DNA of 64,000 bases. It comes from Eubacteriales bacterium (lineage in GTDB: Bacteria; Bacillota; Clostridia; Oscillospirales; CAG-272). Within the stretch, counting starts at the first letter, position 1; each line of letters starts with the position of its first letter. This document shows, piece by piece, positions 1-64,000 of the stretch. The stretch lies in assembly GCA_045631745.1 (NCBI GenBank), contig JAZQVI010000068.1:852-64851 (forward strand), written 5' to 3'. The position numbers and the translations under genes were made by a program. A model generated the notes under the pieces. The model had not been told where the DNA came from, ran no database searches, and saw only the letters and a list, made by a program, of their open reading frames with translations.

Positions 1-422
1 CACCCGATACAAATACTCCCGATGCTACTCCCGATGAGAAGGACGGCATTTCGGCAGGTGCAGTGATCGCGATCGTGATCGGAGCGGTTCTACTCCTTGG
101 GGCTGGCGGATTTGCGATCTTCTGGTTTGTGATCAAGAAGAAGGAAACAGAGCAGCCCGAAACACAACCTGCAATGGCAGAAAAGGCGCCCGAAACGGCA
201 GAAGAGATTGCCAAAGCTGAGGAATGCGCCGTAGTTGTGGATGCTTCCGCGACGGAAGACGATTCCGTAGAAGATGCGGTCGCAGAGAATATCCCCGCAG
301 AAGAAATCTCCTCTGAAGAAACCGCAACTTCCGAAGAGGAAGCGACTGCAGAGGAACTCCCCTCCGAGGAAGATGCGTCGGCTGAAGAAGCTACCTCGGA
401 AGACGGCAACGATCAGGCATAA
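1..422 (+). CDS. 3' end of a membrane-anchored surface protein gene (5' part lies outside the window): end of ectodomain, one TM helix, acidic tail
   Basis: Frame 3 is open from nt 3 (PDTNTPDATPDEKDGISAGA...) into the listed ORF 63..422. Hydrophobic segment AVIAIVIGAVLLLGAGGFAIFWFVI is followed by KKK and a ~90-aa E/A/S/T/D-rich tail. Stop at 420-422. Confidence 0.6.
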   Translation, partial: PDTNTPDATPDEKDGISAGAVIAIVIGAVLLLGAGGFAIFWFVIKKKETEQPETQPAMAEKAPETAEEIAKAEECAVVVDASATEDDSVEDAVAENIPAEEISSEETATSEEEATAEELPSEEDASAEEATSEDGNDQA

Positions 423-50830: not shown

Positions 50831-52111
50831 ATGATTGACATTAAATATATCAAGGAAAAGCCCGACGAGGTGGTTGCACGCCTTGCAAAGAAGGGCAAGG
50901 ACGCCAAAGAAGACATCGAGAACATCCTTCGTCTCGATGCAGAGCGCAGAGCATTGATCGGCGAGACCGAAACGCTCAAGGCAGACCAAAACAAGACCAA
51001 CAAGCTGATCCCCCAATACAAAAAAGAAGGCAAGGACGTTGCACCTATTTTCGCCGAAATGAAGGCGATCGGCGCAAAGGTTAAGGAGAACGATGACAAG
51101 CTCAAGGAGATCGAGACTCAGCTTACTTCCTTCCTGCTCGGACTCCCCAATCTCCCCGATTTCGACCTCAAGGAAGGCGGAAAAGAGAACAACGAGCCCC
51201 TCCGTTACTTCGGAGAGCCCAGAAAGTTCGACTTCGAGCCCAAGAATCATGTGGATCTTTGCACCGATCTCGGCCTGATTGACTACAAGAGAGGCGCAAA
51301 GCTTTCCGGAAACGGATTTTGGATCTACTCCGGCCTTGGTGCGCGCTTGGAGTGGGCGATTCTGAACTACTTTATCGATTATCACCTTGGCAACAACTAT
51401 CAGCTGATGCTGGTTCCCCATATGCTGGGCTATGAGTGCGGCCTTACCGCAGGTCAGTTCCCGAAATTCCAGGACGAGGTGTACTGGCTTGAAGCAGCAG
51501 AAGACGAGCGTCGCCGCTTCATGCTCCCCACCGCTGAGACCGCTTTGGTATCCCTCCACAGAGACGAGATTCTGACCGAGGCAGATCTTCCCAAGAAGTA
51601 TATCAGCTACACCCCTTGCTTCCGTCGCGAGGCAGGCTCTTATCGTGCAGATGAGCGCGGAATGGTAAGAGGTCACCAATTCAACAAGGTGGAAATGGTT
51701 CAGTACACCCTCCCCGAGAAGAGCGACGAGGCTTTTGAGGAGCTGGTAGCGAACGCAGAAGGCCTGGTTCGCGGTCTTGGATTCCATTTCCGCACCGTAA
51801 AGCTTGCCGCAGAGGACTGCTCCGCATCCATGGCAAGAACCTACGATATCGAGATCAACATCCCCTCCATGAACGGCTATAAGGAGGTTTCCTCTGTTTC
51901 CAACGCACGCGACTATCAGGCCCGCCGCGGCATGATGAGAGTCAGACGCGCAAACGGAAAAACCGAGTTTGTTCACACGCTGAACGGATCCGGACTGGCA
52001 ACCAGCCGTATTTTCCCCGCGCTTGTTGAGCAGAATCAGAACGCCGACGGCAGCGTGACCGTCCCCGAGGTTCTTCGCAAATATATCGGTCTGGACGTCA
52101 TAAAAAAATAA
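50831..52111 (+). CDS. serS: Seryl-tRNA synthetase
   Basis: 426 aa. MIDIKYIKEKPDEV... Class II motifs (FRREAGS, HTLNGSGLA). Confidence 0.93.
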   Translation: MIDIKYIKEKPDEVVARLAKKGKDAKEDIENILRLDAERRALIGETETLKADQNKTNKLIPQYKKEGKDVAPIFAEMKAIGAKVKENDDKLKEIETQLTSFLLGLPNLPDFDLKEGGKENNEPLRYFGEPRKFDFEPKNHVDLCTDLGLIDYKRGAKLSGNGFWIYSGLGARLEWAILNYFIDYHLGNNYQLMLVPHMLGYECGLTAGQFPKFQDEVYWLEAAEDERRRFMLPTAETALVSLHRDEILTEADLPKKYISYTPCFRREAGSYRADERGMVRGHQFNKVEMVQYTLPEKSDEAFEELVANAEGLVRGLGFHFRTVKLAAEDCSASMARTYDIEINIPSMNGYKEVSSVSNARDYQARRGMMRVRRANGKTEFVHTLNGSGLATSRIFPALVEQNQNADGSVTVPEVLRKYIGLDVIKK

Positions 52112-52145
52112 TCCGTTGCATGATTGCTTTTGAAAGGAGAATTTT

Positions 52146-52772
52146 TTGGTGCTTTTTTCAAAGATCTATGCTTTATCCGGCGCAAATATTTGGGATAAGA
52201 CCGTAAATTGGTACCAAACCTCAACAATAAAAGAGCTGTTGACTTTTCTTGATACGCAGGTTTTTCACATCAATCCAACCACATATGACCACTTCTCACT
52301 GACAGAGAGGGCAGGAGACAACATCAGAAATGTTGTCCTTGGATTGGTGATCGGTATGATCCTTGCCTCAGCCGCCGCCTATTACACACGCGCGGTACAG
52401 GGCAAATTTGTACGCGAGCTACTGAAGCGGGAATGTCTCTCCCCCGAAACCGCCATTACACTTCGCGAATGCGGCTTCTTCTGCAACCCCACCATTCGAC
52501 GGGAGTTAAAGAACGGCGGCGCGCTCTCAAGAGTCGCAATGCTTGCAGAGCCGCCAGAAAACGCAGATACCCCCATTGATTTTCTGTCCGCGCGCTATTA
52601 TATCCCCGAGGAAACGAAATATCGAGCAGAGTTTCGCTTCCAAAGCAGGGGATTCAGCCCGTTTCACGTGATTCTGGTCGCCTTGATCAGCATTGCCGCC
52701 GGGGTTGCCGTCTTTCGCATCCTCCCCTCACTATTGGGGCTTGCAGACGGATTGCTTACATTGCTCGGCTAA
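52146..52772 (+). CDS. Hypothetical membrane protein (2 predicted TM segments)
   Basis: TTG/GTG start 6-9 nt after AGGAG (52135-52139). TM-like VVLGLVIGMILASAAAYY and VILVALISIAAGVAVFRILPSLLGL. I recognise no motif. Confidence 0.55.
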   Translation: MVLFSKIYALSGANIWDKTVNWYQTSTIKELLTFLDTQVFHINPTTYDHFSLTERAGDNIRNVVLGLVIGMILASAAAYYTRAVQGKFVRELLKRECLSPETAITLRECGFFCNPTIRRELKNGGALSRVAMLAEPPENADTPIDFLSARYYIPEETKYRAEFRFQSRGFSPFHVILVALISIAAGVAVFRILPSLLGLADGLLTLLG

Positions 52773-52779
52773 ATCTCTT

Positions 52780-52817
52780 CCGGGTGAAAACCACGCGTTT
52801 TCACCCGGTTCTTTTTT
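52780..52817 (+). terminator. Intrinsic terminator after the 2-TM protein gene
   Basis: ccgggtgaaaa / ttttcacccgg stem plus ttctttttt. Confidence 0.75.
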
Positions 52818-53003
52818 CGAAAATCAATCTGCATAGATTTGTAAATTTATTTTATTTTGCTTTTTTAGAACAATTCTTGTTCTGTTTTGTCGAAAAAACA
52901 AATATATTTTGGGTGCAAATAATAAAAACCCGATGCAAAAGGGATTTACTCCCAAAAAATCTATAAAAAAGCGACTTTTTAAGGAATAAAATTTAAAAAA
53001 CCC

Positions 53004-53032
53004 TTGACAAAAAGGGAATGTAATGGTAAGAT
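53004..53032 (+). promoter_or_regulatory. sigma-A type promoter of the 1410-aa protein gene
   Basis: TTGACA (53004-53009), 17-nt spacer, TGgTAAGAT (extended -10). An overlapping TATAAT lies at 53032-53037. Confidence 0.55.
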
Positions 53033-53161
53033 ATAATATGTATGGGTGTACTATACCCTTTTCCGGAAATTAGATCGATTTGACGCTGGTGAAATCTGCA
53101 CCGAAAACGTCGAAAAAGCTTCTTACGGAAAGCAAAATTCTAAACAAAGCGAGGTTTTGTT

Positions 53162-56100
53162 ATGAAAACATTCCACAAAGTACTTGCCATGATCCTGTCG
53201 CTGGTCATGCTGCTGTCGGTTGTCCCCGTAGCAGTATTTGCGGCAGAACCCACCGGCGACGTAAATCCCGAGACATCCGAGCAGGTGATTCTTGGAACCG
53301 GCGCAGATGGCACCATTACGCTGAAGCTGAATGCCGATGCTTTGGTTACAGCTCTGAAGGGCGAAAAATCCCTTGAGGCACTGGTTGCGCTGCTTAAGGA
53401 CGCGATCGATCGTTCCGAGCCGGATACCATCACCAAGGCAGATCTCCTCGAGCTGATTCCTGTAGACGGTATCTTCACCGCTCTGAAGGATAACACGGAC
53501 GACGAGACTTTTGCAAAGGTTATGAAGGAGATTCTTGCCGTTGTAAAGAGCGAGGATCTTACTGACTTTGCAACAAATCTTCCCGCAGGTGCGCTTGACG
53601 AGGAAGCGATTGTCACCTTTATCACCGATAAGCTTGTTTTCGACAATGAAGGATACCCGGAAAGCACCGCTCCGATCGAAAAGTACTTCCCCGAAGGGCT
53701 CTTTGATTCTACGGATCTTGAAGGTGAACTCATTGACTATGTCAAACTGGATGTCGTATTCGCAGAGATCGATGTCACCGAGGTTATAAACATCGATGTG
53801 CTTGGTGCAGGCGAGTATGTTGACCTGATCAAGCTCGTCGGCGTTCGCAATCTGATCAAGATTCTCGCAGACGACACAAAGGCGCTCGTGTCCAAGGCAC
53901 AGCTCATGGCTGTTGTTCAGGTTGTTGCATATGACCTCATCAACAACGTAGACTTCGTTGCCATCAATGGTTATGTTGTTGCAGAAGAGGATAATCTCGG
54001 AGCAGTTTCCTTCAACCTCGAGAATTCCGTAAGAGCGATTGCTTCTCTGATTCCTCGTCTGACCGAGTGGGCAGAGTGCGAGGACGGCAAGATCTTCTCC
54101 TTCAACCTCTGCTTTGATTACAGCAACGGAACCGACAGAGCACTCAGCAAGGACATCAACGTTGAGGTCGTTCTTGAGGGTGACTTGACCAACTTCCGCA
54201 AGCTGGCAAGCAAGCTCTCCGAGTACATCGCTGTATATAATAAAGGAAACGTTCTGTACGTAGACGTAACCCTGCCCGAGATCATTACCAGAGCATTTGC
54301 AAAATTCCTGGAGTCTGACAAGGGCGATTCCATCAAGGACGAGATCCTTGGTCTGGGCGACATCACCGGCGAAGAGCTGGTTGCAGCAATCCAAAACCTC
54401 AGCCTGGAGAAGATCATTGCTCTGGCAGAAAAGGTTGACGTTGAGGATCTTTACACCACCATTATGAACATCGCTCAGGTAGAGATGGTTCTGGAGAAGA
54501 TCCAGGAGACCCTCGGCCTGAACTACAGACTTGAGGATATTCAGGATCTGAACAACATCCTCGACGAGATCGCAGACGGTCTGCCTCGCTTTACCTTTGA
54601 GAAGGTTGTAAACGCAATCTCCGCAAGAATCAAGGTTGACATCATGAAGTATCTGGACAAGGGTACTGCTTTTGTTGACGACAAGGATCTGATCAGCAAG
54701 CTGGAGAAGATTCCTTACATCGGCGGTTACGTTGCAAAGTATGGCAGCGACATCGAGCTGAATGCAATTCTGAACCAATACAAGGATGCTGAACCCGTAG
54801 AAGCCGTTTCCGACTTCCTGGCTAAGCTGATTGGCAAGGATCTTCAGAAGTTCCTGCAGTCCAACACGGTCAACGAAATTTATGACCGCTTCGTAGAAGA
54901 GGCTGCTGAGCGCGCGCTGGCTCACAAGAACATCTTCGAGCGCGTAAAGGACTACGCTCTCGCAGCACTTAACCCTAACTACGTTGCAAACTCCGATTGG
55001 GGCAAGCTCGCACAGAAGATCATTCCCGACAAGTTCTACAATCTGCTTGACAACTCCATTGCAGATACATACAAGGGCAACGGCAAGTTTGAGGTTGGCG
55101 ACCACAGCATGGATATCAATCTTGGTGCTTGGTCCGATAAGGCACTCAACCTCCTGCTCAAGTATGTAAACGTTGGCGACGAGCTCAGAGGCTACATTGA
55201 GAATCTGCTGCCCACCTCCACCGTTAACTTTGGCTTTAACTTCTCCCTGACCCTCAGAGGTCTCTCCGGCGTTACCTTCCTTGGTGACGAGGGCAAGGAC
55301 GACATGGTTATGTTCCTTCCCAACGGTCTCAACCCCGCTGAGTATTACAACCTCTGCGTTCCCGGAAACGACGTTTCCTTCTGGGTTGACGAAACCGCAA
55401 ATCCTGTAACCGAAATTCACGGCGACGTGAAGCTGTCCGCAATCCGCGGATTCATCACCGGTACCGGCTACATCCTTACCATTAAGGACGGCCACTGGAC
55501 CATCACCGCCGACTCCGAGGAGTTCGACATTCTCATTAACCTCGCTCATGAGAACGCAAACCTGCTTGCAAGCGCAAACAGCTTGACCTTTGCAAACAAC
55601 AAGGGTCTGAAGATCACCATGGATCAGGAAACCCTGACCGCCCTGCTGGCATCGAAGCAGGTTCTGAAGGCTTCCTATTACTATAGCCTGAACAACGGCG
55701 AGATTTCCAGCGCAGCAGACGGTGCATACACCTACACGCCCGCTCGCGTTGAGAGCTTTGACGTTGTAGCAGGCGGCAACAAGGTAGAAGGCAACTTCAC
55801 CGTAACCGTTCCTTTTGCAGGTGCAACTCCCGAGGCAAACGGCGGAAGAACCAACGTATATCAGATCATTGATGGCAAGATGTCCGCCGAGGAATTCGAG
55901 ACTGACGTCAACCAGGGCAAGAACATTGTGTTCAAGACCACGCACTTCTCTGATTACATCGTTGTAAACGAGTATTTGTTCAAGACTGTCTTTAACAACA
56001 ATGAAGTAAGCGCAACCAAGGCAGACGGATATATTCCCGTTGGTGCAACCGTAAAGATTCGCCCTGTGCTTGAAAACAACTACGGCAAGAGACTCACCAG

Positions 56101-57394
56101 CGTTACCTACGAGGGCAAGGATGTGTTCAACACCTCCATCGTTATGCCCGCAAAGACCGTTACGATTGAGTGTACGGTTGATACGCCCGCAGGAAACGTT
56201 TACTACGATATTCTTGGTACGATCGTAAGTGTTAACGATCTGGACAAGGCAAACACCGCACTGAACAACTGGCTCAGCGATTCCAAGAACGCGGGTTACA
56301 AGCTTGCTAACGCAAACAACCGTTGGAAGGAAATTGCTACCACCAGCGAAAATGGTGACGTTTATATGTGTGCAAACCTGGTTGCAATCGAGGCAGATCC
56401 TACTCTGCCCCAGGCAACGGTTAAGTACAACGTCCTGAACGCAAACGGTGCAAAGATCGACGGTCCTATTGCTGCAGGAGCAACCTACAAATACACTGCT
56501 ACCGGCAAGGCCGCAATCGTCTACATCAACCTGAGCACCGGCAAGGCTATTGAGGCAGTAAATGGTGCAATCACCATGCCTGCATCCGACGTTATGGTTA
56601 TGGTAACCGAGATGGTAACCTACACCGTTAACGGTGATGAGTACACCGCTGTAAAGGATAGCATCGTAAGCCACAACGTAACGCTGAGCAAGACCGAAGC
56701 TCTGAAGGTAACTGCTAAGCCCAATGACTTCAAGCTTGCATCCTATGTAATCAACGCAGACGGATCCAAGACTCTGACCTACACCTTCACGGCAAAGGAC
56801 GGCGTTGCAATCACCTATGCAAAAGAAATCGTTTCTGTTGATAGCTACCAGTACGATGTCCATGAAGAGGCACCCGAGGAGAAGGGCAGCCTGCTGTGGC
56901 TGTGGATTCTGATCGCTCTGATCGTTCTGATCGGTCTGATCGCTCTGTTCTACAACCTCTACATCAACGAGAAGCTGAAGCCCAACTTCATGCTCCGCTT
57001 CATCACTTGGATCGTAAGCATGTTCTTCAATGCTTGTCTGGCAGTTTCCGCAGTCGTTCTTTGGATCGGCCAGGGAACCACCAAGAAGGGCGAGGTTGAC
57101 TACGAGGAGTTCGGAATGAACAACCCCGAGAACACTGAGAACACCGAGGAGACCGTTGAGGCTGTTTCCGAGGAAACCGTTGAGGAAACCACCGAAGAGG
57201 GCGACGACACAGTAGCCGCATTCGAGGAAGTATCCGAAGAAGAGGTTGCAGTAGACGAGGCTGTTGCTGAGGAGGTAGTTGCTGAAGAGGCAGCTATCGA
57301 AGAAGTAGTCGCTGAAGAAGTGGTTGTCGACGAGGCAGTGGCTGAAGAGGCAGTTGCAGAGGAAACCACCGAAACAACCAACGAACAGAACTAA
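53162..57394 (+). CDS. Very large secreted/membrane-anchored envelope protein: signal peptide, ~1180-aa ectodomain, two C-terminal TM segments, acidic E/A/V tail
   Basis: Signal peptide MKTFHKVLAMILSLVMLLSVVPVAVFAAEP. TM segments LLWLWILIALIVLIGLIALFYNLY and FITWIVSMFFNACLAVSAVVLWIG. Tail ...EEVAVDEAVAEEVVAEEAAIEEVVAEEVVVDEAVAEEAVAEE. I recognise no catalytic motif. Confidence 0.85.
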   Translation: MKTFHKVLAMILSLVMLLSVVPVAVFAAEPTGDVNPETSEQVILGTGADGTITLKLNADALVTALKGEKSLEALVALLKDAIDRSEPDTITKADLLELIPVDGIFTALKDNTDDETFAKVMKEILAVVKSEDLTDFATNLPAGALDEEAIVTFITDKLVFDNEGYPESTAPIEKYFPEGLFDSTDLEGELIDYVKLDVVFAEIDVTEVINIDVLGAGEYVDLIKLVGVRNLIKILADDTKALVSKAQLMAVVQVVAYDLINNVDFVAINGYVVAEEDNLGAVSFNLENSVRAIASLIPRLTEWAECEDGKIFSFNLCFDYSNGTDRALSKDINVEVVLEGDLTNFRKLASKLSEYIAVYNKGNVLYVDVTLPEIITRAFAKFLESDKGDSIKDEILGLGDITGEELVAAIQNLSLEKIIALAEKVDVEDLYTTIMNIAQVEMVLEKIQETLGLNYRLEDIQDLNNILDEIADGLPRFTFEKVVNAISARIKVDIMKYLDKGTAFVDDKDLISKLEKIPYIGGYVAKYGSDIELNAILNQYKDAEPVEAVSDFLAKLIGKDLQKFLQSNTVNEIYDRFVEEAAERALAHKNIFERVKDYALAALNPNYVANSDWGKLAQKIIPDKFYNLLDNSIADTYKGNGKFEVGDHSMDINLGAWSDKALNLLLKYVNVGDELRGYIENLLPTSTVNFGFNFSLTLRGLSGVTFLGDEGKDDMVMFLPNGLNPAEYYNLCVPGNDVSFWVDETANPVTEIHGDVKLSAIRGFITGTGYILTIKDGHWTITADSEEFDILINLAHENANLLASANSLTFANNKGLKITMDQETLTALLASKQVLKASYYYSLNNGEISSAADGAYTYTPARVESFDVVAGGNKVEGNFTVTVPFAGATPEANGGRTNVYQIIDGKMSAEEFETDVNQGKNIVFKTTHFSDYIVVNEYLFKTVFNNNEVSATKADGYIPVGATVKIRPVLENNYGKRLTSVTYEGKDVFNTSIVMPAKTVTIECTVDTPAGNVYYDILGTIVSVNDLDKANTALNNWLSDSKNAGYKLANANNRWKEIATTSENGDVYMCANLVAIEADPTLPQATVKYNVLNANGAKIDGPIAAGATYKYTATGKAAIVYINLSTGKAIEAVNGAITMPASDVMVMVTEMVTYTVNGDEYTAVKDSIVSHNVTLSKTEALKVTAKPNDFKLASYVINADGSKTLTYTFTAKDGVAITYAKEIVSVDSYQYDVHEEAPEEKGSLLWLWILIALIVLIGLIALFYNLYINEKLKPNFMLRFITWIVSMFFNACLAVSAVVLWIGQGTTKKGEVDYEEFGMNNPENTENTEETVEAVSEETVEETTEEGDDTVAAFEEVSEEEVAVDEAVAEEVVAEEAAIEEVVAEEVVVDEAVAEEAVAEETTETTNEQN

Positions 57395-57462
57395 TTTCTC
57401 TCCGCACAAACGTTGCGGTAGATAAGACAAAATCATTTAACAAAGACGTTGAATGAGCGCAA

Positions 57463-57503
57463 GGGGGAAAACTTTTTGAGAGAAAGGTTTTCCCCCGTTT
57501 TTT
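57463..57503 (+). terminator. Intrinsic terminator after the 1410-aa protein gene
   Basis: gggggaaaac / gttttccccc stem plus gtttttt. Confidence 0.8.
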
Positions 57504-57569
57504 ACGTTTGATTTTTCAACAGCATCATTGGCAGAGGTTCACGCTCGACCATGACAAAACGGAGTTTGG

Positions 57570-58436
57570 GTGACTCAATTTTCTAAAAAACCGCCACACG
57601 TCCTGCAAATACGCGAGAAAACAGTCTTTTTCTGTCGGATGGCGAGAAAAAATGATCTGTTGAAAACTTTGTCGACAAATGAAAATTTGGAGGATTCTAT
57701 TTTGATTTATCGCGCACATTACACCGTAAAATGGCATGACACAGACGCCAACCGACGCATGCGTCCGTCGCAGCTGCTGGTTTATATGCAGGAGACGGCA
57801 AATTTACATTTGCACGATTCCAACATGGATCTTGATAAGCTTCGCGACGAGAAGGGGCTTGGCTTTTTGCTCAGCCGTGTGTCGGTTTGTATTTATCATC
57901 AACTGCACGCATATGATGAAATTGACGTGGAGACCTGGATCTGCGAAGGGAAGGGCTTGAGCTTCAACCGTTGCTTCCGAATTTTCAGAGGTGAGGAAAT
58001 TGTTGCAGAGGCCTTTACCGTGTGGGCGTTGATGGATCTTTCCAACCAAAAGCTGGTTCGTCAGGAGCAATTCGAATACCCCTTTACCGGCGAGGCACCA
58101 CTATCTCTGTCCCTGCCCATTCGGTTCCGCGTTCCTGCGATGGAAGAGATGCCTTTGGTTGGAAAGCGTCGGATCGTTTACTCCGATCTTGATTACAACG
58201 GCCACATGAACAATACCCATTATCCCGATATGCTCTGCGACTTCACCGAGGGCATTACCTCAAAAGAGATCATCGGATTCTCACTGTCTTATCTCCATGA
58301 GGCCGCCTTTGGACGAAACCTATCTGTGTATCGAAGTGATCTTGGTGAGGAGCATTTTTTCCGTACTGTAGATGAAGAAGGGAACACCTGCCTTGAGGCA
58401 AAGCTCTTTACAAAATCAATCGAGGATTTGAAGTGA
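57570..58436 (+). CDS. Acyl-[acyl-carrier-protein] thioesterase
   Basis: YRAHYTVKWHDTDANRRMRPSQLLVYMQETANLH and the second hot-dog half SDLDYNGHMNNTHY. GTG 57570 lies 5 nt after GGAG; the alternative start is ATG 57639. Confidence 0.75.
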   Translation: MTQFSKKPPHVLQIREKTVFFCRMARKNDLLKTLSTNENLEDSILIYRAHYTVKWHDTDANRRMRPSQLLVYMQETANLHLHDSNMDLDKLRDEKGLGFLLSRVSVCIYHQLHAYDEIDVETWICEGKGLSFNRCFRIFRGEEIVAEAFTVWALMDLSNQKLVRQEQFEYPFTGEAPLSLSLPIRFRVPAMEEMPLVGKRRIVYSDLDYNGHMNNTHYPDMLCDFTEGITSKEIIGFSLSYLHEAAFGRNLSVYRSDLGEEHFFRTVDEEGNTCLEAKLFTKSIEDLK

Positions 58437-59422
58437 ACATGGTAAACCGAAATTTTCAACTTCTCAAATGCAAACGAAGCGAGGAGAATGTGGACCTATC
58501 CACAGAAAACGCAATCACAATCGGCCCCCGCGCGTTCTATCGGAACAGACGAATTGAAACAGTCAAGCTCCCAAAGACACTTTCGGCAATTAAGGCACAG
58601 GCCTTTTCCAAATGCCGTCATCTGCAGACTGTCGAAGTTGACAGCGAAAGTGTTGGCATTTCTACCGCCTCCTTTTCGGATTGTTACCGTCTAAAACACA
58701 TAAAAAACGACACACGTGTTGTAACAATCGGGAATAAGGCCTTTCAAAATTGCCATGCGTTAGAGGAAATTCATTTTGGAAGCAGCCTTCTAAAGATCGG
58801 AGACGAAGCTTTTCGCGATTGCAGAGCGCTTTCTTCCGTTTCGCTGCCTGATGAGACTGCGTTCCTGGGGCAATTCGCCTTTGCCGACTGTTGGAATTTG
58901 TCGGACGTGTCATTGGGAAACGGAATTACAACGATTCCGAAGGGCGCTTTTCGGAACTGTATTTCGCTCAAAACAGTCGAAATTCCGCAAACCGTGACCG
59001 AAATTTCCACATACGCCTATCAAAACTGCTCCGCTTGTCGGAGCCTAACTGTACCGGAAAACGTGAAAAAGCTGAGACACGTGGCGTTTTTTGGCTGTTC
59101 TCGGCTGGAAACAGTCAAGGTTGAATTGGGATGCACTCAGATCGGAGCACTCTGCTTTGCAAACAACCGAAGCCTTACGGAAGTCACACTCCCTCATTCC
59201 GTCAAACGTCTCGGATTTGGCGCATTTGGTTTAAAAAAGAGAGATAAAAAGATTCGAATTTGCGTCGAAAATGAATATATGCTCCGAAGAATACGGCGCA
59301 CGCTGTTGTTTTGCGGATCGTTTCTTGCTGCCGAGGCCGTCATGACGGGAAAAACAATCGAAGAGCGCAAGCGCGAGCGCCGACGCAATACACTGGAGCA
59401 AACCGCTGCACATATCAGCTAA
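58433..59422 (+). CDS. Cytoplasmic leucine-rich-repeat protein (BspA/LRR_5-type repeats)
   Basis: GTG start overlaps the thioesterase stop (GTGA), with GAGGA 6 nt upstream. Repeats of the pattern I..IG..AF..C..L..V.LP. No signal peptide. Basic C-terminus. Confidence 0.7.
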   Translation: MNMVNRNFQLLKCKRSEENVDLSTENAITIGPRAFYRNRRIETVKLPKTLSAIKAQAFSKCRHLQTVEVDSESVGISTASFSDCYRLKHIKNDTRVVTIGNKAFQNCHALEEIHFGSSLLKIGDEAFRDCRALSSVSLPDETAFLGQFAFADCWNLSDVSLGNGITTIPKGAFRNCISLKTVEIPQTVTEISTYAYQNCSACRSLTVPENVKKLRHVAFFGCSRLETVKVELGCTQIGALCFANNRSLTEVTLPHSVKRLGFGAFGLKKRDKKIRICVENEYMLRRIRRTLLFCGSFLAAEAVMTGKTIEERKRERRRNTLEQTAAHIS

Positions 59423-59572
59423 AAGAACGCGTTTTCCCCATTTTTGGGTAAAAAAATTGCGTTTTTTCAGAGGAGACGCTTTGGAGGAGATAAAATCCCT
59501 TCAAATTCACACCATTGCTGTAAAAAAAACAAAAAAATTTCAAAAAAATGAGCTTTAAAATTACAAATTCTG

Positions 59573-59601
59573 TTGACAAGACATTTTCTTTATGATATAA
59601 T
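59573..59601 (+). promoter_or_regulatory. Consensus sigma-A promoter of the 979-aa protein gene
   Basis: TTGACA, 17-nt spacer, TATAAT. Confidence 0.65.
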
Positions 59602-59670
59602 GTAAAAGGATATTATTATTCATTTCCGGCGTATTGCCGAGAAAAAATTTCAAGAAAGGTTGATGTTGTA

Positions 59671-62610
59671 ATGAAAGGTCAACGCACAAAACAACAAAAC
59701 AGATCGGCATTGCTCACGATCACCGCAGTCCTTCTGATGCTCGTCGTCACCATGATTGGACTTACGGCTGTCGTTTCTGCCGAAGAGGACGGTTTAACTA
59801 CTCGTCTGAACATCACCGCTAACCATTTTGCACAGGTCGCAGGCGACGGTCTCGACTATGAGAATGGTATTTTTACCAAGGAGTATGACGGCACGGACGC
59901 TGCAGATCTGATCCAAAACCCTCTCGTTACTCTCACTGAGGACGACGGTATAGCAGCAGGTCACGACGTTTCTGTACTCTTTACAAGTGCAAAGTTTGAC
60001 AAGTCCGGAGTTGATGCAACCAAGATCGTGGTTGAGTTCGAGCTTGTGGGTGAGGATGCAGGGTTGTACTACGCCCATGCAGTTTCCTTCAACGGAAAGA
60101 TCACTCCCAAGAAGCTGGAGTATAAGACCGATGTTACATATAGCCCCAACGGCATCGTACTGAGCGCAAACGGCGTGGAGGTTGATGGCGTAAACGACGA
60201 AAAGGTTGCAATCACCGTATCCAACGTAAAGCTCGGCGTTTTGAATGCTCGCAGCAACCAGGCTTATTCTTACGAAGGAGCCGGCATTGCAACAACCAAC
60301 AACGCGAACTACGTTGTGTCCAAGGTAGAAGTCACGGTTAATCCCGTTATCATCACGGAGGTTACTTGGGTAGGCAATACCGCGTGGGCATACGGCAGCG
60401 AACCCATCAAGGCTTACGGAAACAAGACCCTCAACATTTTCAAGCTTGTAGCTGACAAAGCCACCGACTGGGCAGAAGGAAACGTTGGTGAATACAGAGT
60501 CACAGCAACGATCATGGATGCATACAGCGGCAACTACAAGTTTGCAACGGGTGTCACAAACAGCAAAACCGTTAACATCAACCAGCTGGTAATCAATGTT
60601 TCTATGCCTGACTCCACTGTGGTCGGCAATGGAACCACTGTTTACTCGATCTCTGTACAGGGAACCAATATTCCTGCAGAGGTTTTGAACCTGATCACCT
60701 ATAAGTCTAACGGAGCAGACTTCAACGGATTTACCTTTGGTGAGGCTACCGTTGAGGCGATCCTTCCCACCTCTGCGAACTACACGTTCCTTGATGGTGA
60801 GAGAACTGTTACGAAGCTCACCGCTACTCTCAGAGTTCTTCGCGGAGAGAAGGTGTTTGACGTTCTTGATGAGGACGGCAACAAGGTCGGAAATGTCATT
60901 CTTGCAAGTCCCGACGGATTCTCTGACAGCGTGACCGCAGAGATCACCGCACTCAAGGGATTCCCCAAGATCACAAAGAACAAGTACAACATGGTTTACA
61001 ACGTCAAGCTCAACGGCGCTGCAGCAGGTCAGACCTTTACCCTCTACATTCCGTTGACCGACACCGTGTTTGGTTCCCGCATTGAGAGCCTTAACAAGGA
61101 TACCCTGTGCATTTACGAAGCAGCTAACGGAACGCTGACCTCCGCAACCAGTGCATCCAAGGGCTACACCGTTGTACTGGACGAGGACAACAGATACTAT
61201 CAGATTGACGGATTCGCAGGCGAATCCACCTTCGTAATCGCTCCCGATTACAATGCACCTTTCTTCCAGACTGTATGGGGCATTCTCCTGATCGTTGTTC
61301 TTGTAATTGCAATTCTCGTTATGATGTGTTACGTTGGTCTCTACCTCCGCCGCGTCCTTGAGACGAGAGAAGCACCCGCTACCGTAATCGATACCATCGG
61401 CGAGCTTCCCGAGGCTGAACCCGTTGAGGTTGAGGAGAAGGAAGAGGTCGATGTGGATGCTGTAATCGATCAGAACCTCGACGAGCTCGTAGAAAACATC
61501 GTCAATGAGACCGCTGAATCCGAGGAAGTTGACACGACTGAGCTGGATGAGGCTGTTGCAGAAAGCATTGAAGCTGTCGTAGAAGAGGCATCTGAGATTG
61601 TTCTGGACGAGGCACCTGCTCAAGAAGAAGTTGTTGAAGAAGCAGCTGAAGAGGTTGTTGAAGAGACTGCCGAGGAGGTTGTTGAGGAAGCAACCGAAGA
61701 GGCAGTTGAGGAAGTTGCCGCTGAAGAAGCATCTGCTGATGAGGAAGTTGTTGTAGCTGCTGAAGAAGTTGTTGAAGAGGTTGCAGAACCTGCAGAGGCA
61801 ACCGAAGAGGCTGTTGAAGAGGTCGTTGAGGCCGCCGAAGAGGTTGTTGAGGAGGTAGCTGCTGAGGAAGCAGAAACCGAATCTGACGATGACAACAACG
61901 ATGACTCCGATGATGGCGACGATTCCGTTGAGGCAATCAGCATGGTTGAGGACAACGACGCATCCTTCGGATTTGGTGTAAGCGTTGATCCTTCCACCTT
62001 CGTTGACGTAAAGGAAGATCCCGATGCATACCAGGCAATGCTGGATCGCGAGGCTCGCGGTGAGATCAAGATCGTTTACCGCTATAAGAAGAGCTTCCAG
62101 TCCAAGCTCGCACAGTCTCAGGGCAACGTTCAGGATTACTACTCCGAGCTCAAGAATGCACTTCTCACCTTCAAGGGTGTGAAGAACCGTCTGAGCTGGA
62201 ACTATGAGGCATTCAACAAGGGCAGAGCACACGTTGCAAAGATGGATGCGAAGTCCAAGACGCTGTATCTCTACCTGGCACTTGATCCTGCACAGTTTGC
62301 AGAGACCAAGTACAGTGTTGTGGACGTATCTGCAAAGAGAAAGTATGCAACCACTCCTACGCTCATCAAGATCAAGGGCGAGAGAAAGTTCAAGCATGCA
62401 CTCGAGCTGATCGAGAAGCTTTGCGGAGAGCAGCTGGAGCTTGCAAAGGTTGAGGCTGAGAACGTAGATTACCGCGTTGCACGCATGACCATTGACGAGA
62501 TGGTAGATGCAGGACTCATGAAAAAGAACGCAGGCTACGTTGTTCTCGTTCCCGAGGCTGAGGCAGTTGCTGCCGATGCTCAGGTTGAGACCGCTCCCGA
62601 GCAGAACTAA
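59671..62610 (+). CDS. Large type-I membrane protein: signal peptide, ~500-aa ectodomain with YDG/MBG-like Ig repeats, one TM helix, ~200-aa acidic E/A/V linker, ~230-aa C-terminal globular domain
   Basis: Signal peptide LLTITAVLLMLVVTMIGLTAVVSAEE. FTKEYDGTDAADL and GKITPKKLEY resemble MBG-type repeats. TM VWGILLIVVLVIAILVMMCYVGLYL followed by RR. Linker EEVVEEAAEEVVEETAEEVVEEATEEAVEE... C-terminal YRYKKSFQSKLAQSQGNVQDYYSELKNALL... Confidence 0.85.
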   Translation: MKGQRTKQQNRSALLTITAVLLMLVVTMIGLTAVVSAEEDGLTTRLNITANHFAQVAGDGLDYENGIFTKEYDGTDAADLIQNPLVTLTEDDGIAAGHDVSVLFTSAKFDKSGVDATKIVVEFELVGEDAGLYYAHAVSFNGKITPKKLEYKTDVTYSPNGIVLSANGVEVDGVNDEKVAITVSNVKLGVLNARSNQAYSYEGAGIATTNNANYVVSKVEVTVNPVIITEVTWVGNTAWAYGSEPIKAYGNKTLNIFKLVADKATDWAEGNVGEYRVTATIMDAYSGNYKFATGVTNSKTVNINQLVINVSMPDSTVVGNGTTVYSISVQGTNIPAEVLNLITYKSNGADFNGFTFGEATVEAILPTSANYTFLDGERTVTKLTATLRVLRGEKVFDVLDEDGNKVGNVILASPDGFSDSVTAEITALKGFPKITKNKYNMVYNVKLNGAAAGQTFTLYIPLTDTVFGSRIESLNKDTLCIYEAANGTLTSATSASKGYTVVLDEDNRYYQIDGFAGESTFVIAPDYNAPFFQTVWGILLIVVLVIAILVMMCYVGLYLRRVLETREAPATVIDTIGELPEAEPVEVEEKEEVDVDAVIDQNLDELVENIVNETAESEEVDTTELDEAVAESIEAVVEEASEIVLDEAPAQEEVVEEAAEEVVEETAEEVVEEATEEAVEEVAAEEASADEEVVVAAEEVVEEVAEPAEATEEAVEEVVEAAEEVVEEVAAEEAETESDDDNNDDSDDGDDSVEAISMVEDNDASFGFGVSVDPSTFVDVKEDPDAYQAMLDREARGEIKIVYRYKKSFQSKLAQSQGNVQDYYSELKNALLTFKGVKNRLSWNYEAFNKGRAHVAKMDAKSKTLYLYLALDPAQFAETKYSVVDVSAKRKYATTPTLIKIKGERKFKHALELIEKLCGEQLELAKVEAENVDYRVARMTIDEMVDAGLMKKNAGYVVLVPEAEAVAADAQVETAPEQN

Positions 62611-62621
62611 TATCGTGTTTT

Positions 62622-62652
62622 ACACCCCCTCGCTTTGAGGGGGTGTTTTTTT
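62622..62652 (+). terminator. Intrinsic terminator after the 979-aa protein gene
   Basis: acaccccctc / gagggggtgt stem plus tttttt. Confidence 0.8.
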
Positions 62653-62660
62653 GACAAAAA

Positions 62661-62702
62661 TAAAAAGACTGTCTCAAATGCGCCTTGCACTTGAGACAGT
62701 TT
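62661..62702 (-). terminator. Terminator after the convergent lipoprotein gene
   Basis: agactgtctcaa / ttgagacagt stem, T-rich downstream on the minus strand. Confidence 0.65.
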
Positions 62703-62715
62703 CTTTTATTTCATT

Positions 62716-63363
62716 TCAGACCGTTAATTTATCCAACAGCCATATGTCATTTTCCTTCACCAGGAACAGATTCATTTCAAATACACGGTCAGGCTTATCT
62801 TCCTCCCAGGCGTTGATCGAAATGGACACACGCTGCGCGTTGCTCGGGCGGATCACCTTCATAGAGGCATAATCATAGATCAGCGGAGTTGGGTGATATG
62901 CACCTTCTTCCTCGATCAGAATAAAGAGATCGGTATTATCCTGAATATACCTTGCCGGAAGATACTTGGATGCGGCACCGGGCACACTTTGCATCAAGCC
63001 ATCAAACATACTGGGATAAACAGAGGATTCCAGCAAGGCAGAGCTATAAACCTGTCCTGCAGCCTGCTTAATCTCTTCCACAGTGTGATATTTGGATTGC
63101 GCGCTCACAATGTGATAGTTTTCTGTGTATCCGAGCTTGGTGTAATCACTGTATAAACTCTCATAAACCGGAAGATTTCGATCACAGTAGGGAAGTCCTT
63201 TTCCGTAGAAGATCTCATTGAGCTCGTAGGAGGCCTCAATCAGCGCTACCACGCGGTCATAAATCTGTTCCAATTTGGGAGCGCGTCCGGCGCATCCGAC
63301 GCATCCGATCAACACGCTCACCAAAATCAGAACGACAGTTAAAATCCTATAAACTTTTTTCAT
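62716..63363 (-). CDS. Hypothetical lipoprotein
   Basis: MKKVYRILTVVLILVSVLIGC: signal peptide with lipobox-like LIGC. 215 aa. I recognise no motif. Confidence 0.65.
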   Translation of the reverse strand: MKKVYRILTVVLILVSVLIGCVGCAGRAPKLEQIYDRVVALIEASYELNEIFYGKGLPYCDRNLPVYESLYSDYTKLGYTENYHIVSAQSKYHTVEEIKQAAGQVYSSALLESSVYPSMFDGLMQSVPGAASKYLPARYIQDNTDLFILIEEEGAYHPTPLIYDYASMKVIRPSNAQRVSISINAWEEDKPDRVFEMNLFLVKENDIWLLDKLTV

Positions 63364-63379
63364 ATAACTTCAGATGGTA

Positions 63380-64000
63380 TTATTCCTGATCCGACGATTC
63401 CTCAACGCCTTCCATAACCTCATCCGATTCCTCCTCACGAGCAACCTTGGTGAAGTTCACAAGCGTCTGATTTTCGCCGAGGCGCATGACGATAACACCT
63501 CCGGCACTTCTGGAACGAGAGGGAATTCCGCTCACGGGGGTACGAATAATCGTTCCCGAGTCGGTAATGAGCATCAAGTCGTCATTGTCGTCAACAGATG
63601 CCACACCTGTGAGCAATCCGCTCTTATCCGTAATATTGTAGCACGTCACACCGTATCCACCGCGGTGCTTCATGACGCGGAATTCATCAAACGGGCAACG
63701 CTTTCCAAATCCCTTTTCGGTCACACAGATCAGATCCTTGCCCTCTTCAACAACGGCAACACCAACGACCTCGTCGCCCTCTCTGAGGGAAATTCCTCTG
63801 ACACCGCGTGCGGTTCTTCCCATGACACGTGCCTCGGATTCAACAAAGCGGACAGCCTGGCCGTTTCTGGTGGTAATAAGCAATTCACTGTCTCCGTCGG
63901 TACAACGAACGAAGAGAAGCTCGTCGCCCTCGTCGAGGTTGATCGCGATCTTTCCGCCCTTGCGCTGATACTCAAAATCTGTCAGAGGCGTACGCTTGAT
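63380..64000 (-). CDS. gyrA: DNA gyrase subunit A, C-terminal beta-pinwheel domain and acidic tail (5' part outside the window)
   Basis: The frame stays open to the window edge. Hand translation upstream of the listed ORF gives ...IKRTPLTDFEYQRKGGKIAINLDEGDELLFVRCTDGDSELLITTRNG... followed by repeated G.RGI/ GGxG blades. Confidence 0.85.
   Translation of the reverse strand: MKRTPLTDFEYQRKGGKIAINLDEGDELLFVRCTDGDSELLITTRNGQAVRFVESEARVMGRTARGVRGISLREGDEVVGVAVVEEGKDLICVTEKGFGKRCPFDEFRVMKHRGGYGVTCYNITDKSGLLTGVASVDDNDDLMLITDSGTIIRTPVSGIPSRSRSAGGVIVMRLGENQTLVNFTKVAREEESDEVMEGVEESSDQE

Follow-up and report, generated by a model that had tools for sequence, protein, structure and literature searches.

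The stretch of DNA analysed here, 64,000 nucleotides (nt) of an Eubacteriales genome of the Oscillospirales (contig JAZQVI010000068.1; hereafter the window), encodes two giant membrane-anchored proteins, A (1410 amino acids (aa), 53162-57394) and B (979 aa, 59671-62610), in which a strongly acidic segment follows the membrane anchor. In B this segment is a linker: it runs into a basic C-terminal domain of about 190 aa, here called C-dom, and this cassette, a membrane helix followed by an acidic linker and C-dom, is found repeatedly in a large family that has no annotation. On balance we favour the reading that A and B are abundant adhesin-like surface proteins, and that B couples a variable ectodomain, by way of a polyanionic spacer, to a cytoplasmic C-dom that binds polyanions. 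Positions are those of the window, and features lie on the + strand unless stated otherwise.

An earlier, sequence-only reading of this DNA had described three genes of paralogous architecture, each encoding an ectodomain, a membrane helix and an acidic tail. Its coordinates for A and B agree with the list of open reading frames (ORFs), and of the third gene, C, only the C-terminal part lies in the window, with a stop codon by nt 422. In a six-frame scan the three acidic tails, all situated after hydrophobic helices, were the sole acidic stretches of at least 79 aa in the window. The layout is indeed shared; homology of the ectodomains is not, and paralogy of A and B was ruled out, as profile-profile comparison gave a 39-column match only. 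Both families are small (17 homologues of A, 12 of B) and confined to uncultured gut Clostridia, and searches with A, B and the family profiles against Protein Data Bank (PDB) sequences returned nothing meaningful.

Both N-termini are of the signal-peptide type, as had been proposed. That of A, delimited by hydrophobicity scan and sequence, spans aa 1-27 (...VAVFA/AEP; 53162-53242) and is 80% identical among homologues; that of B, a signal peptide or signal anchor, spans aa 1-37 (...AVVSA/EED; 59671-59781) and is 81% identical among orthologues. No SLH or cell-wall-binding match to Pfam or NCBIfam was found in A, B or their homologues, and a regular expression detected no C-terminal LPXTG in the window proteins, in agreement with the earlier view that anchoring is by membrane helices and not by SLH or LPXTG modules.

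The ectodomain of A (aa 28-1238, 53243-56875) was characterized with an AlphaFold2 model of aa 39-1238 and Foldseek. The model has a mean predicted local distance difference test score (pLDDT) of 67, and consists of about 640 mostly helical residues of low confidence followed by about 550 β-rich residues with a pLDDT of about 80, which are Ig-like or adhesin-like. Foldseek matched the ectodomain to Lactococcus YwfG (expectation value (E) 3e-4), the SraP adhesin, streptococcal envelope proteases and the InlB B-repeat. A itself has no match among curated profiles (Pfam, NCBIfam) or PDB sequences, while Flg_new_2 is matched in two of its 17 homologues, among which ectodomain identity is 31-54%. 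These folds and domain traces, together with those of B given below, support the proposal of the sequence-only reading that the proteins are adhesin-like. Foldseek also aligned A with the GAIN/HormR region of BAI3 (4dlo; E 0.012, probability 1.0, template modelling score (TM-score) 0.27), on a model of modest confidence. A GAIN-like domain would be unusual for a bacterial surface protein, and no HL/T-like GAIN autoproteolysis motif is visible ahead of the membrane helix.

A is anchored by a membrane hairpin (56876-57076), two helices within aa 1239-1270 and 1276-1305 joined by the basic loop NEKLKPNFMLR. Conservation within A peaks in the hairpin (72% mean identity), whose sequence is confined to the A family among the proteins fetched. 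The loop carries a charge of +3 in the window protein; in the consensus of the family the figure is +4. With a basic loop and a cleaved signal peptide, strict positive-inside counting puts the acidic tail of A outside the cell, so that this tail may be extracytoplasmic. The sequence-only reading had placed the acidic tails of one-helix proteins in the cytoplasm; this is consistent with the KKK and RR that follow the helices of C and B, respectively, and is put in doubt for A by the two-helix hairpin. The tail itself, delimited by the acidic-stretch scan (aa 1306-1410, 57077-57394), is rich in glutamate, valine, alanine and threonine, has a net charge of -38, is built from degenerate 15/30-nt repeats and ends ...TNEQN. 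Hairpin and tail are retained together in 16 of the 17 homologues; the remaining one, P0013, is tail-less. Similar C-terminal ends occur in the A and B families (57362-57394 and 62578-62610 in the window; P0002-P0028), with the variants TNEQN, TDEQN, TAPEQN and TTPEEN, and this common ending may be a shared motif or a mere consequence of composition.

In B, the ectodomain (aa 38-526, 59782-61248) appears to carry a YDG-type Ig-like module near its N-terminus. Pfam YDG (PF18657) scored 19.9 bits against the window protein, below the cut-off of 25, and was found in 4 of 13 aligned B sequences at E <= 0.01 (best 2.1e-6); one orthologue has a precomputed PF18657 match. Conservation is uneven along the chain. 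Among the 12 orthologues mean identity is 46% for ectodomain residues 38-390 (minimum 26%) and 87% for the membrane helix (61249-61359), on the C-terminal side of which lies the RR pair. The acidic-stretch scan delimits a linker of aa 564-774 (61360-61992), of which aa 566-762 consist of 33% glutamate, 18% valine, 16% alanine and 10% aspartate and have a net charge of -81. It is made of degenerate 12/24-nt repeats (EEVVEEAA) and is 57% identical among orthologues, with composition and length kept. The protein closes with C-dom and a short acidic end (...AQVETAPEQN) plus stop codon (62551-62610), modelled with low confidence. The long acidic stretches reported by the sequence-only reading are real, then, except that in B the stretch is not a free tail, being the linker to a basic, near-invariant domain.

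The basic domain of B and its family

C-dom (aa 775-960, 61993-62550), delimited by conservation, AlphaFold2 and Foldseek, is 93% identical among the 12 B orthologues, and its AlphaFold2 model has a pLDDT of 90.4. The best Foldseek match in the PDB was E. coli YjbR (2fki; E 0.011, probability 0.98), followed by YdhG/DUF1801 structures (2oc6, 9t2w), and in BFVD a phage DUF5655 protein was the second-best viral match (E 4e-4). Intermediate sequences lead to the same families. P0150, a tandem-copy relative that matches C-dom at E 2e-113, scored 62.8 bits against DUF5655 (PF18899; cut-off 24, E 3.6e-17), and one C-dom relative matches DUF1801 at 6e-5. As modelled, C-dom shares the 'double-wing' fold of YjbR, DUF1801 and DUF5655, and the intermediates connect it by sequence to the DUF5655/DUF1801/YjbR superfamily; we therefore regard it as a divergent branch of that superfamily, so far without annotation.

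The sequence-only reading knew of no characterised family with the layout of A and B. It was right in that no curated family matches the window proteins directly; C-dom, however, joins the above superfamily, and the PADLOC candidate defence family PDC-S18 aligns with it at E 1.6e-10 over B aa 804-926 (window 62080-62448). The alignment covers profile positions ~192-333, the C-terminal half only, with no full-length match. A relative with the domain DUF2357 and four C-dom copies matches PDC-S18 at E 1.6e-17. In the literature we found no description of PDC-S18, and for DUF5655 only an unrelated mention.

A search with C-dom alone recovered 227 proteins, mostly hypothetical proteins of about 350-380 aa from Clostridia/Ruminococcaceae, in which an N-terminal segment is followed by an acidic glutamate-, alanine- and valine-rich linker and then by C-dom. 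With HMMER against 1.84 billion representatives, the family comprised 2,996 clusters at E <= 1e-3 and 2,074 at E <= 1e-10, clustered at 50% identity, and relatives carry one to seven copies. A genome scan gave 186 C-dom loci, the best 80 of which all belong to gut Clostridia, Oscillospiraceae or Eubacteriales assemblies, nearly all uncultured metagenome-assembled genomes (MAGs); among these 80, at least 20 assemblies hold two loci. In tblastn searches against phage and plasmid collections C-dom had no match.

Layouts were counted in the 148 best C-dom representatives. The layout of B (signal peptide, ectodomain, membrane helix, linker, C-dom) was found in 58, one to three C-doms behind an N-terminal anchor in 37, and no membrane helix in 42; in none does a C-dom lie ahead of the first membrane helix. 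The distance from the last membrane helix to the first C-dom ranges from 8 to 572 aa. The C-dom core has a net charge of +10.9 +/- 3.6 and is positive in 99% of 410 copies. The 60 aa on either side have mean charges of -11.9 and -10.5; background windows from the same proteins average -4.6. Many of the invariant residues of C-dom are lysine, arginine or aromatic, among them R804, K828, K835, K838, R840, R852, K900, R905 and K906 of B (R42, K66, K73, K76, R78, R90, K138, R143 and K144 of the alignment). The ectodomains of other C-dom proteins contain MBG, Flg_new, Ig and β-helix domains. In four very large relatives (P0171, P0194, P0198 and P0210), the C-doms are preceded by a signal peptide and two hydrophobic segments, and basic residues follow both segments; as with the hairpin of A, this leaves the topology ambiguous. 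Some relatives also match Ribosomal_L27A and Extensin, for which basic or low-complexity composition is suspected.

Several observations point to nucleic acid. YjbR is a predicted 'double-wing' DNA binder, like MotA of phage T4 (PMC7641849, PMC3424535), and YjbR domains have been found fused to EVE domains in defence contexts. DUF2357, the N-terminal domain of McrC (PMC11090510), occurs in 20 of 33 sampled C-dom relatives, mostly without a membrane helix; Pfam detects none in A or B. The large DUF2357/C-dom proteins, of about 1000-1500 aa (P0151, P0154, P0156, P0180, P0181, P0240, P0252 and P0295; L127 720-4862), have no membrane helix and carry two to seven C-doms with acidic linkers between them. 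In three genomes a C-dom paralogue of about 360 aa is encoded immediately after rex, a DnaB_2 (DnaD-like) gene and a gene for a DnaI/DnaC-like helicase loader (8001-9080 in L121 and L122, 6001-7077 in L123, 3118-4194 in L124, and 6001-7101 in L125 and L126); further downstream the genes differ between these loci. Another C-dom paralogue sits after two large surface-protein genes. From the fold class of C-dom, its charges, the domains fused to it and its genomic surroundings, we predict a polyanion as its ligand and favour nucleic acid.

Expression signals and the proposed role of the acidic segments

Near-consensus promoters and terminators, previously reported for A and B, were confirmed by a consensus scan. 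The A promoter (53004-53032) reads TTGACA-17-TAAGAT with a TG extension; its -35 hexamer does not vary between three orthologous loci (L001, L003 and L005), which also keep the TG and most of the -10 hexamer. The B promoter (59573-59601) reads TTGACA-17-TATAAT, also with a TG extension, and matches consensus at 12 of 12 hexamer positions, which are invariant in L007, L001 and L005. The genes end in terminators at 57463-57496 (A; 15-bp stem and T run) and 62622-62646 (B). Just downstream of the -10 hexamer of A lies a 17-nt leader element, ATGGGTGTACTATACCC (53042-53058), which occurs once in the window. Four orthologous loci carry it without a change, at an identity of only 38-52% between their A proteins. 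The element can form a 6-bp hairpin at the predicted mRNA 5' end, present in the minimum-free-energy fold of the leader, and may be an mRNA stabiliser or an operator. The ribosome-binding site of A is invariant across the orthologous loci as well.

A codon bias noted earlier was also confirmed: A has no TTA, CTA or TCA in its 1410 codons, and B has one TTA, at codon 42, and none thereafter. Across the window these codons average about 7 per 1000. They are absent from several further genes too, including that for seryl-tRNA synthetase (SerRS); the bias is real and fits high expression, and it is not unique to A and B. ORFs of 1437 aa (53123-57436, - strand) and 867 aa (59794-62397, - strand) lie opposite A and B, respectively. 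They are shadows, because a sense frame without TTA, CTA and TCA leaves one antisense frame free of stops. Promoters, codon bias, 5' hairpin and an origin-proximal site (see below) suggest that A and B are highly expressed, and the abundance suggested by the sequence-only reading may be kept in that form, as a prediction.

The reading we favour can be stated as follows. A and B would be exported via Sec and held in the cytoplasmic membrane by their C-terminal helices, without wall-anchoring modules, and their ectodomains diverge fast while the membrane segments and the parts downstream are conserved. The acidic segments would be polyanionic and disordered, and they consist of short degenerate repeats. 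The linker of B would act as a flexible spacer of about 210 residues that tethers C-dom to the inner face of the membrane, where C-dom would bind nucleic acid, the most probable ligand, or another polyanion of the cytoplasm. The acidic linkers on either side would serve both as spacer and as intramolecular competitor for the basic C-dom, keeping it soluble, off the anionic membrane and tuned in affinity. B would thereby link a variable surface ectodomain to a conserved intracellular partner. A has no C-dom, and its tail comes after the hairpin. Of these points, anatomy, conservation, fold class, family size, charge pattern and synteny come from the data, whereas abundance, topology, ligand and linker role are predictions.

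Several points weigh against this reading. All the support for nucleic-acid binding is indirect, and the case for high expression comes from sequence only. The window C-dom has no direct Pfam or NCBIfam match, PF18899, PF08818 and PF04237 giving none at E <= 10, and the fold matches are weak (TM-score ~0.46-0.53 by target length, E 0.01-0.05), in a fold class that also holds YdhG/Fra, an iron-handling frataxin analogue (9t2w). Conserved synteny close to the origin and beside dnaB-dnaI may just mean shared ancestry within one order, and no McrB was seen beside the DUF2357/C-dom gene at the single locus examined. The model of A is of low confidence across its N-terminal half. If the tail of A lies outside the cell, a single explanation cannot cover all three tails, and there are exceptions to the arrangement, namely the A orthologue without a tail (P0013) and a lineage without B at the locus (L003).

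A further step would be that the cassette is a widespread, unrecognised means by which gut Clostridia tether envelope proteins, often adhesin-like ones of the surface, to the nucleoid or to other nucleic acid, with the linkers as a nucleic-acid mimic that gates C-dom and with B as a connector or sensor between surface and chromosome. We offer this tentatively and think it rather doubtful as a whole; if it is true, the ~360-aa paralogue beside dnaB-dnaI would join C-dom to replication at the membrane. We also considered binding of the tail of A in trans by the C-dom of B. This idea is weakened by a locus that has B together with a tail-less A (P0013/L005) and by another that has a tailed A and no B at this position (L003).

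Among the alternatives, the one that survives best holds that the acidic segments have no ligand and are entropic spacers, solubility aids or a charged 'stopper' against the extraction of single-helix-anchored adhesins from the membrane, with C-dom as a folded cytoplasmic plug. Degenerate short repeats, composition and length that are kept at 42-57% identity, the wide range of helix-to-C-dom lengths, and adhesin-like ectodomains without a covalent wall anchor would all suit this role. A passive plug, however, needs less constraint than C-dom displays in its identity among orthologues and its invariant lysine, arginine and aromatic residues. Moreover, C-doms occur in tandem in proteins without a membrane helix, and acidic flanks track C-dom copies specifically. 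We consider a purely passive role unlikely for these reasons.

Still less probable is the original proposal of the sequence-only reading, in which S-layer-like proteins bear free polyanionic tails in the cytoplasm, and these sequester cations or basic partner proteins that come from other molecules. It draws on the extreme acidity of the segments (net -81 in B, -38 in A and -29 over 79 residues in C), on tail composition kept in homologues, on the KKK and RR after the helices of C and B, and on genes that look highly expressed. The segment of B, however, leads to a conserved basic domain of the same protein, so that the basic partner imagined for a polyanionic tail is, in B, supplied at least partly by the protein itself. 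The hairpin may place the tail of A outside, one A orthologue has lost its tail, and SLH or other S-layer anchoring domains are missing. Neither the S-layer idea nor the cation-sequestering idea gained support from any test made.

We give little credence to the view that B-type proteins are envelope sensors in defence against phages or foreign nucleic acid, with the ectodomain facing phages and C-dom recognising incoming nucleic acid. The PDC-S18 matches, the McrC N-terminal domain in many relatives, the YjbR-EVE fusions and the fast-evolving ectodomains would be consistent with it. B lies, however, in a conserved origin-proximal core block, whereas a variable island would be expected of a defence gene. 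Purifying selection on C-dom is strong and, with two loci in at least 20 assemblies among the best 80 loci, C-dom looks housekeeping-like. No nuclease or NTPase partner was found beside it, the phage and plasmid collections gave no match, and PDC-S18 is unvalidated. Finally, that C-dom is a frataxin/YdhG-like metal-handling domain whose linkers bind iron or other cations at the membrane is highly improbable: the top fold matches do include YdhG-like (DUF1801) structures, one of them a Listeria protein deposited as 'frataxin', one relative matches DUF1801 and the linkers are polyanionic, but the C-dom core is basic, unlike the acidic metal-binding ridge of frataxins, its conserved residues are lysine, arginine, tyrosine and phenylalanine and not aspartate, glutamate or histidine, and the genomic context is not metal-related.

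Gene order and neighbouring genes

The locus reads gidA-gidB-parA-parB-serS-(208-aa two-helix protein)-A-thioesterase-LRR protein-B-lipoprotein-gyrA, where LRR stands for leucine-rich repeat, so that the A/B block is origin-proximal, with parB-serS on one side and gyrA on the other. Co-conservation of these genes, which the sequence-only reading had left to be checked, was found: the order is kept in genomes in which A is only 38-52% identical, with the lineage L003 lacking B at this position. In the closest genome (L007, an Eubacteriales MAG) A is 62% identical and its neighbours 79-93%, which makes A the fastest-evolving gene of the block. Such fast evolution is as expected for proteins exposed to the host, phages or other bacteria. 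An Rfam search of 52000-64000 gave no match.

Upstream of A, the 208-aa protein (ORF call, 52146-52772) has two hydrophobic segments and no match in Pfam or NCBIfam. It lies between serS and A in every fetched orthologous locus that reaches that far (L001, L003 and L005), with 42-56% identity, and a terminator scan placed a terminator after its gene (52780-52808). Between A and B, the acyl-ACP thioesterase (57570-58436), identified by Pfam Acyl-ACP_TE N- and C-terminal domains, has a longest ORF that begins with GTG, 44 codons before the start of the alignment with most orthologues (57570-57701). The orthologues are 244-253 aa long and align from residue 45, and the real start is probably near codon 45, judging from this alignment. 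The BspA-type LRR protein that follows (58433-59422; Pfam LRR_5, E 3e-59) has no signal peptide and has orthologues in four of four loci. The two ORFs overlap by 4 nt at the thioesterase stop codon, in line with the translational coupling proposed for these genes. A signal-less LRR protein paired in synteny with a thioesterase is odd for a repeat type that is usually found at the cell surface. Downstream of B and convergent with it lies a gene (62716-63363, - strand; ORF call and synteny) whose product contains the lipobox LIGC and was correctly called a lipoprotein; orthologues are 58-89% identical, and Pfam gave no match.

Gene C is represented by a C-terminal fragment (3-422), delimited by translation in frame 3 and the acidic-stretch scan. 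A membrane helix at about nt 48-134 is followed by KKK and by an acidic tail rich in glutamate, alanine, threonine and serine (nt 186-419) and then the stop codon. Its distant relatives are surface proteins of more than 1200 aa that share with it the C-terminal anchor helix GGFAIFWFVIKKK only and are without an acidic tail. The sole close metagenome contig (L087 14-430), of independent origin, is 97% identical and broken at almost the same point as the window (1-20), which suggests a repeat or a hard-to-assemble region just upstream of the break.

Comparison with known systems

Gut Oscillospirales are an abundant group with few cultured members, and very little is known of their envelope biology. 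In the window, a conserved origin-proximal block encodes likely major surface proteins that are anchored by membrane helices instead of the textbook wall anchors. The components are of known kinds, modular surface proteins on the one hand and a domain superfamily of unknown function on the other; for the cassette of helix, acidic linker and C-dom, and for the size of the C-dom family, we found no description in the searchable literature. Defining that family, about 3,000 clusters without curated annotation, would annotate thousands of hypothetical proteins. C-dom also offers a handle on how the envelope is connected to the cell interior and, if its ligand is nucleic acid, on a new kind of membrane-to-nucleoid link.

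C-dom resembles the MmcQ/YjbR (PF04237), DUF1801/YdhG (PF08818) and DUF5655 (PF18899) domains in being a small α/β domain with a basic surface. It differs in its length of about 190 aa, against about 110-125, in its own signature, RYxxSF...SW.YE.FN.GR, and in its acidic flanks, which are almost always present. It is, furthermore, typically tethered to the membrane or repeated in tandem, and neither arrangement has to our knowledge been described for those families. PDC-S18 is matched by the C-dom part alone, and B differs from it as a membrane protein encoded in a core block and not in a defence island.

The acidic tail of HMGB1 and the C-terminal tip of SSB are disordered and compete with nucleic acid for the basic domain of their own protein. 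C-dom likewise combines a basic fold with flanking polyanionic disorder in one chain. There is no homology to either protein, the acidic segments here are far longer and rich in glutamate, valine and alanine, and would also serve as membrane tethers, and competition is suggested only by analogy. With S-layer proteins of the SLH or CWB2 type, A and B have in common that they are large and apparently abundant, with strong promoters and codon bias; they differ in being anchored by helices without SLH or CWB2 domains, and a lattice is not indicated.

In overall plan A and B also resemble the membrane-helix-anchored, adhesin-like surface proteins of Firmicutes that are built from YDG, MBG, Flg_new or Ig-like domains, with YwfG and SraP as fold matches: in each case a signal peptide precedes a long, β-rich ectodomain of modular build. 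Relative to these proteins, A has an N-terminal helical region of about 640 aa without detectable relatives and a membrane hairpin. Both A and B lack LPXTG, SLH and wall repeats and carry acidic segments after the helix, to which B adds a conserved domain predicted to be cytoplasmic.

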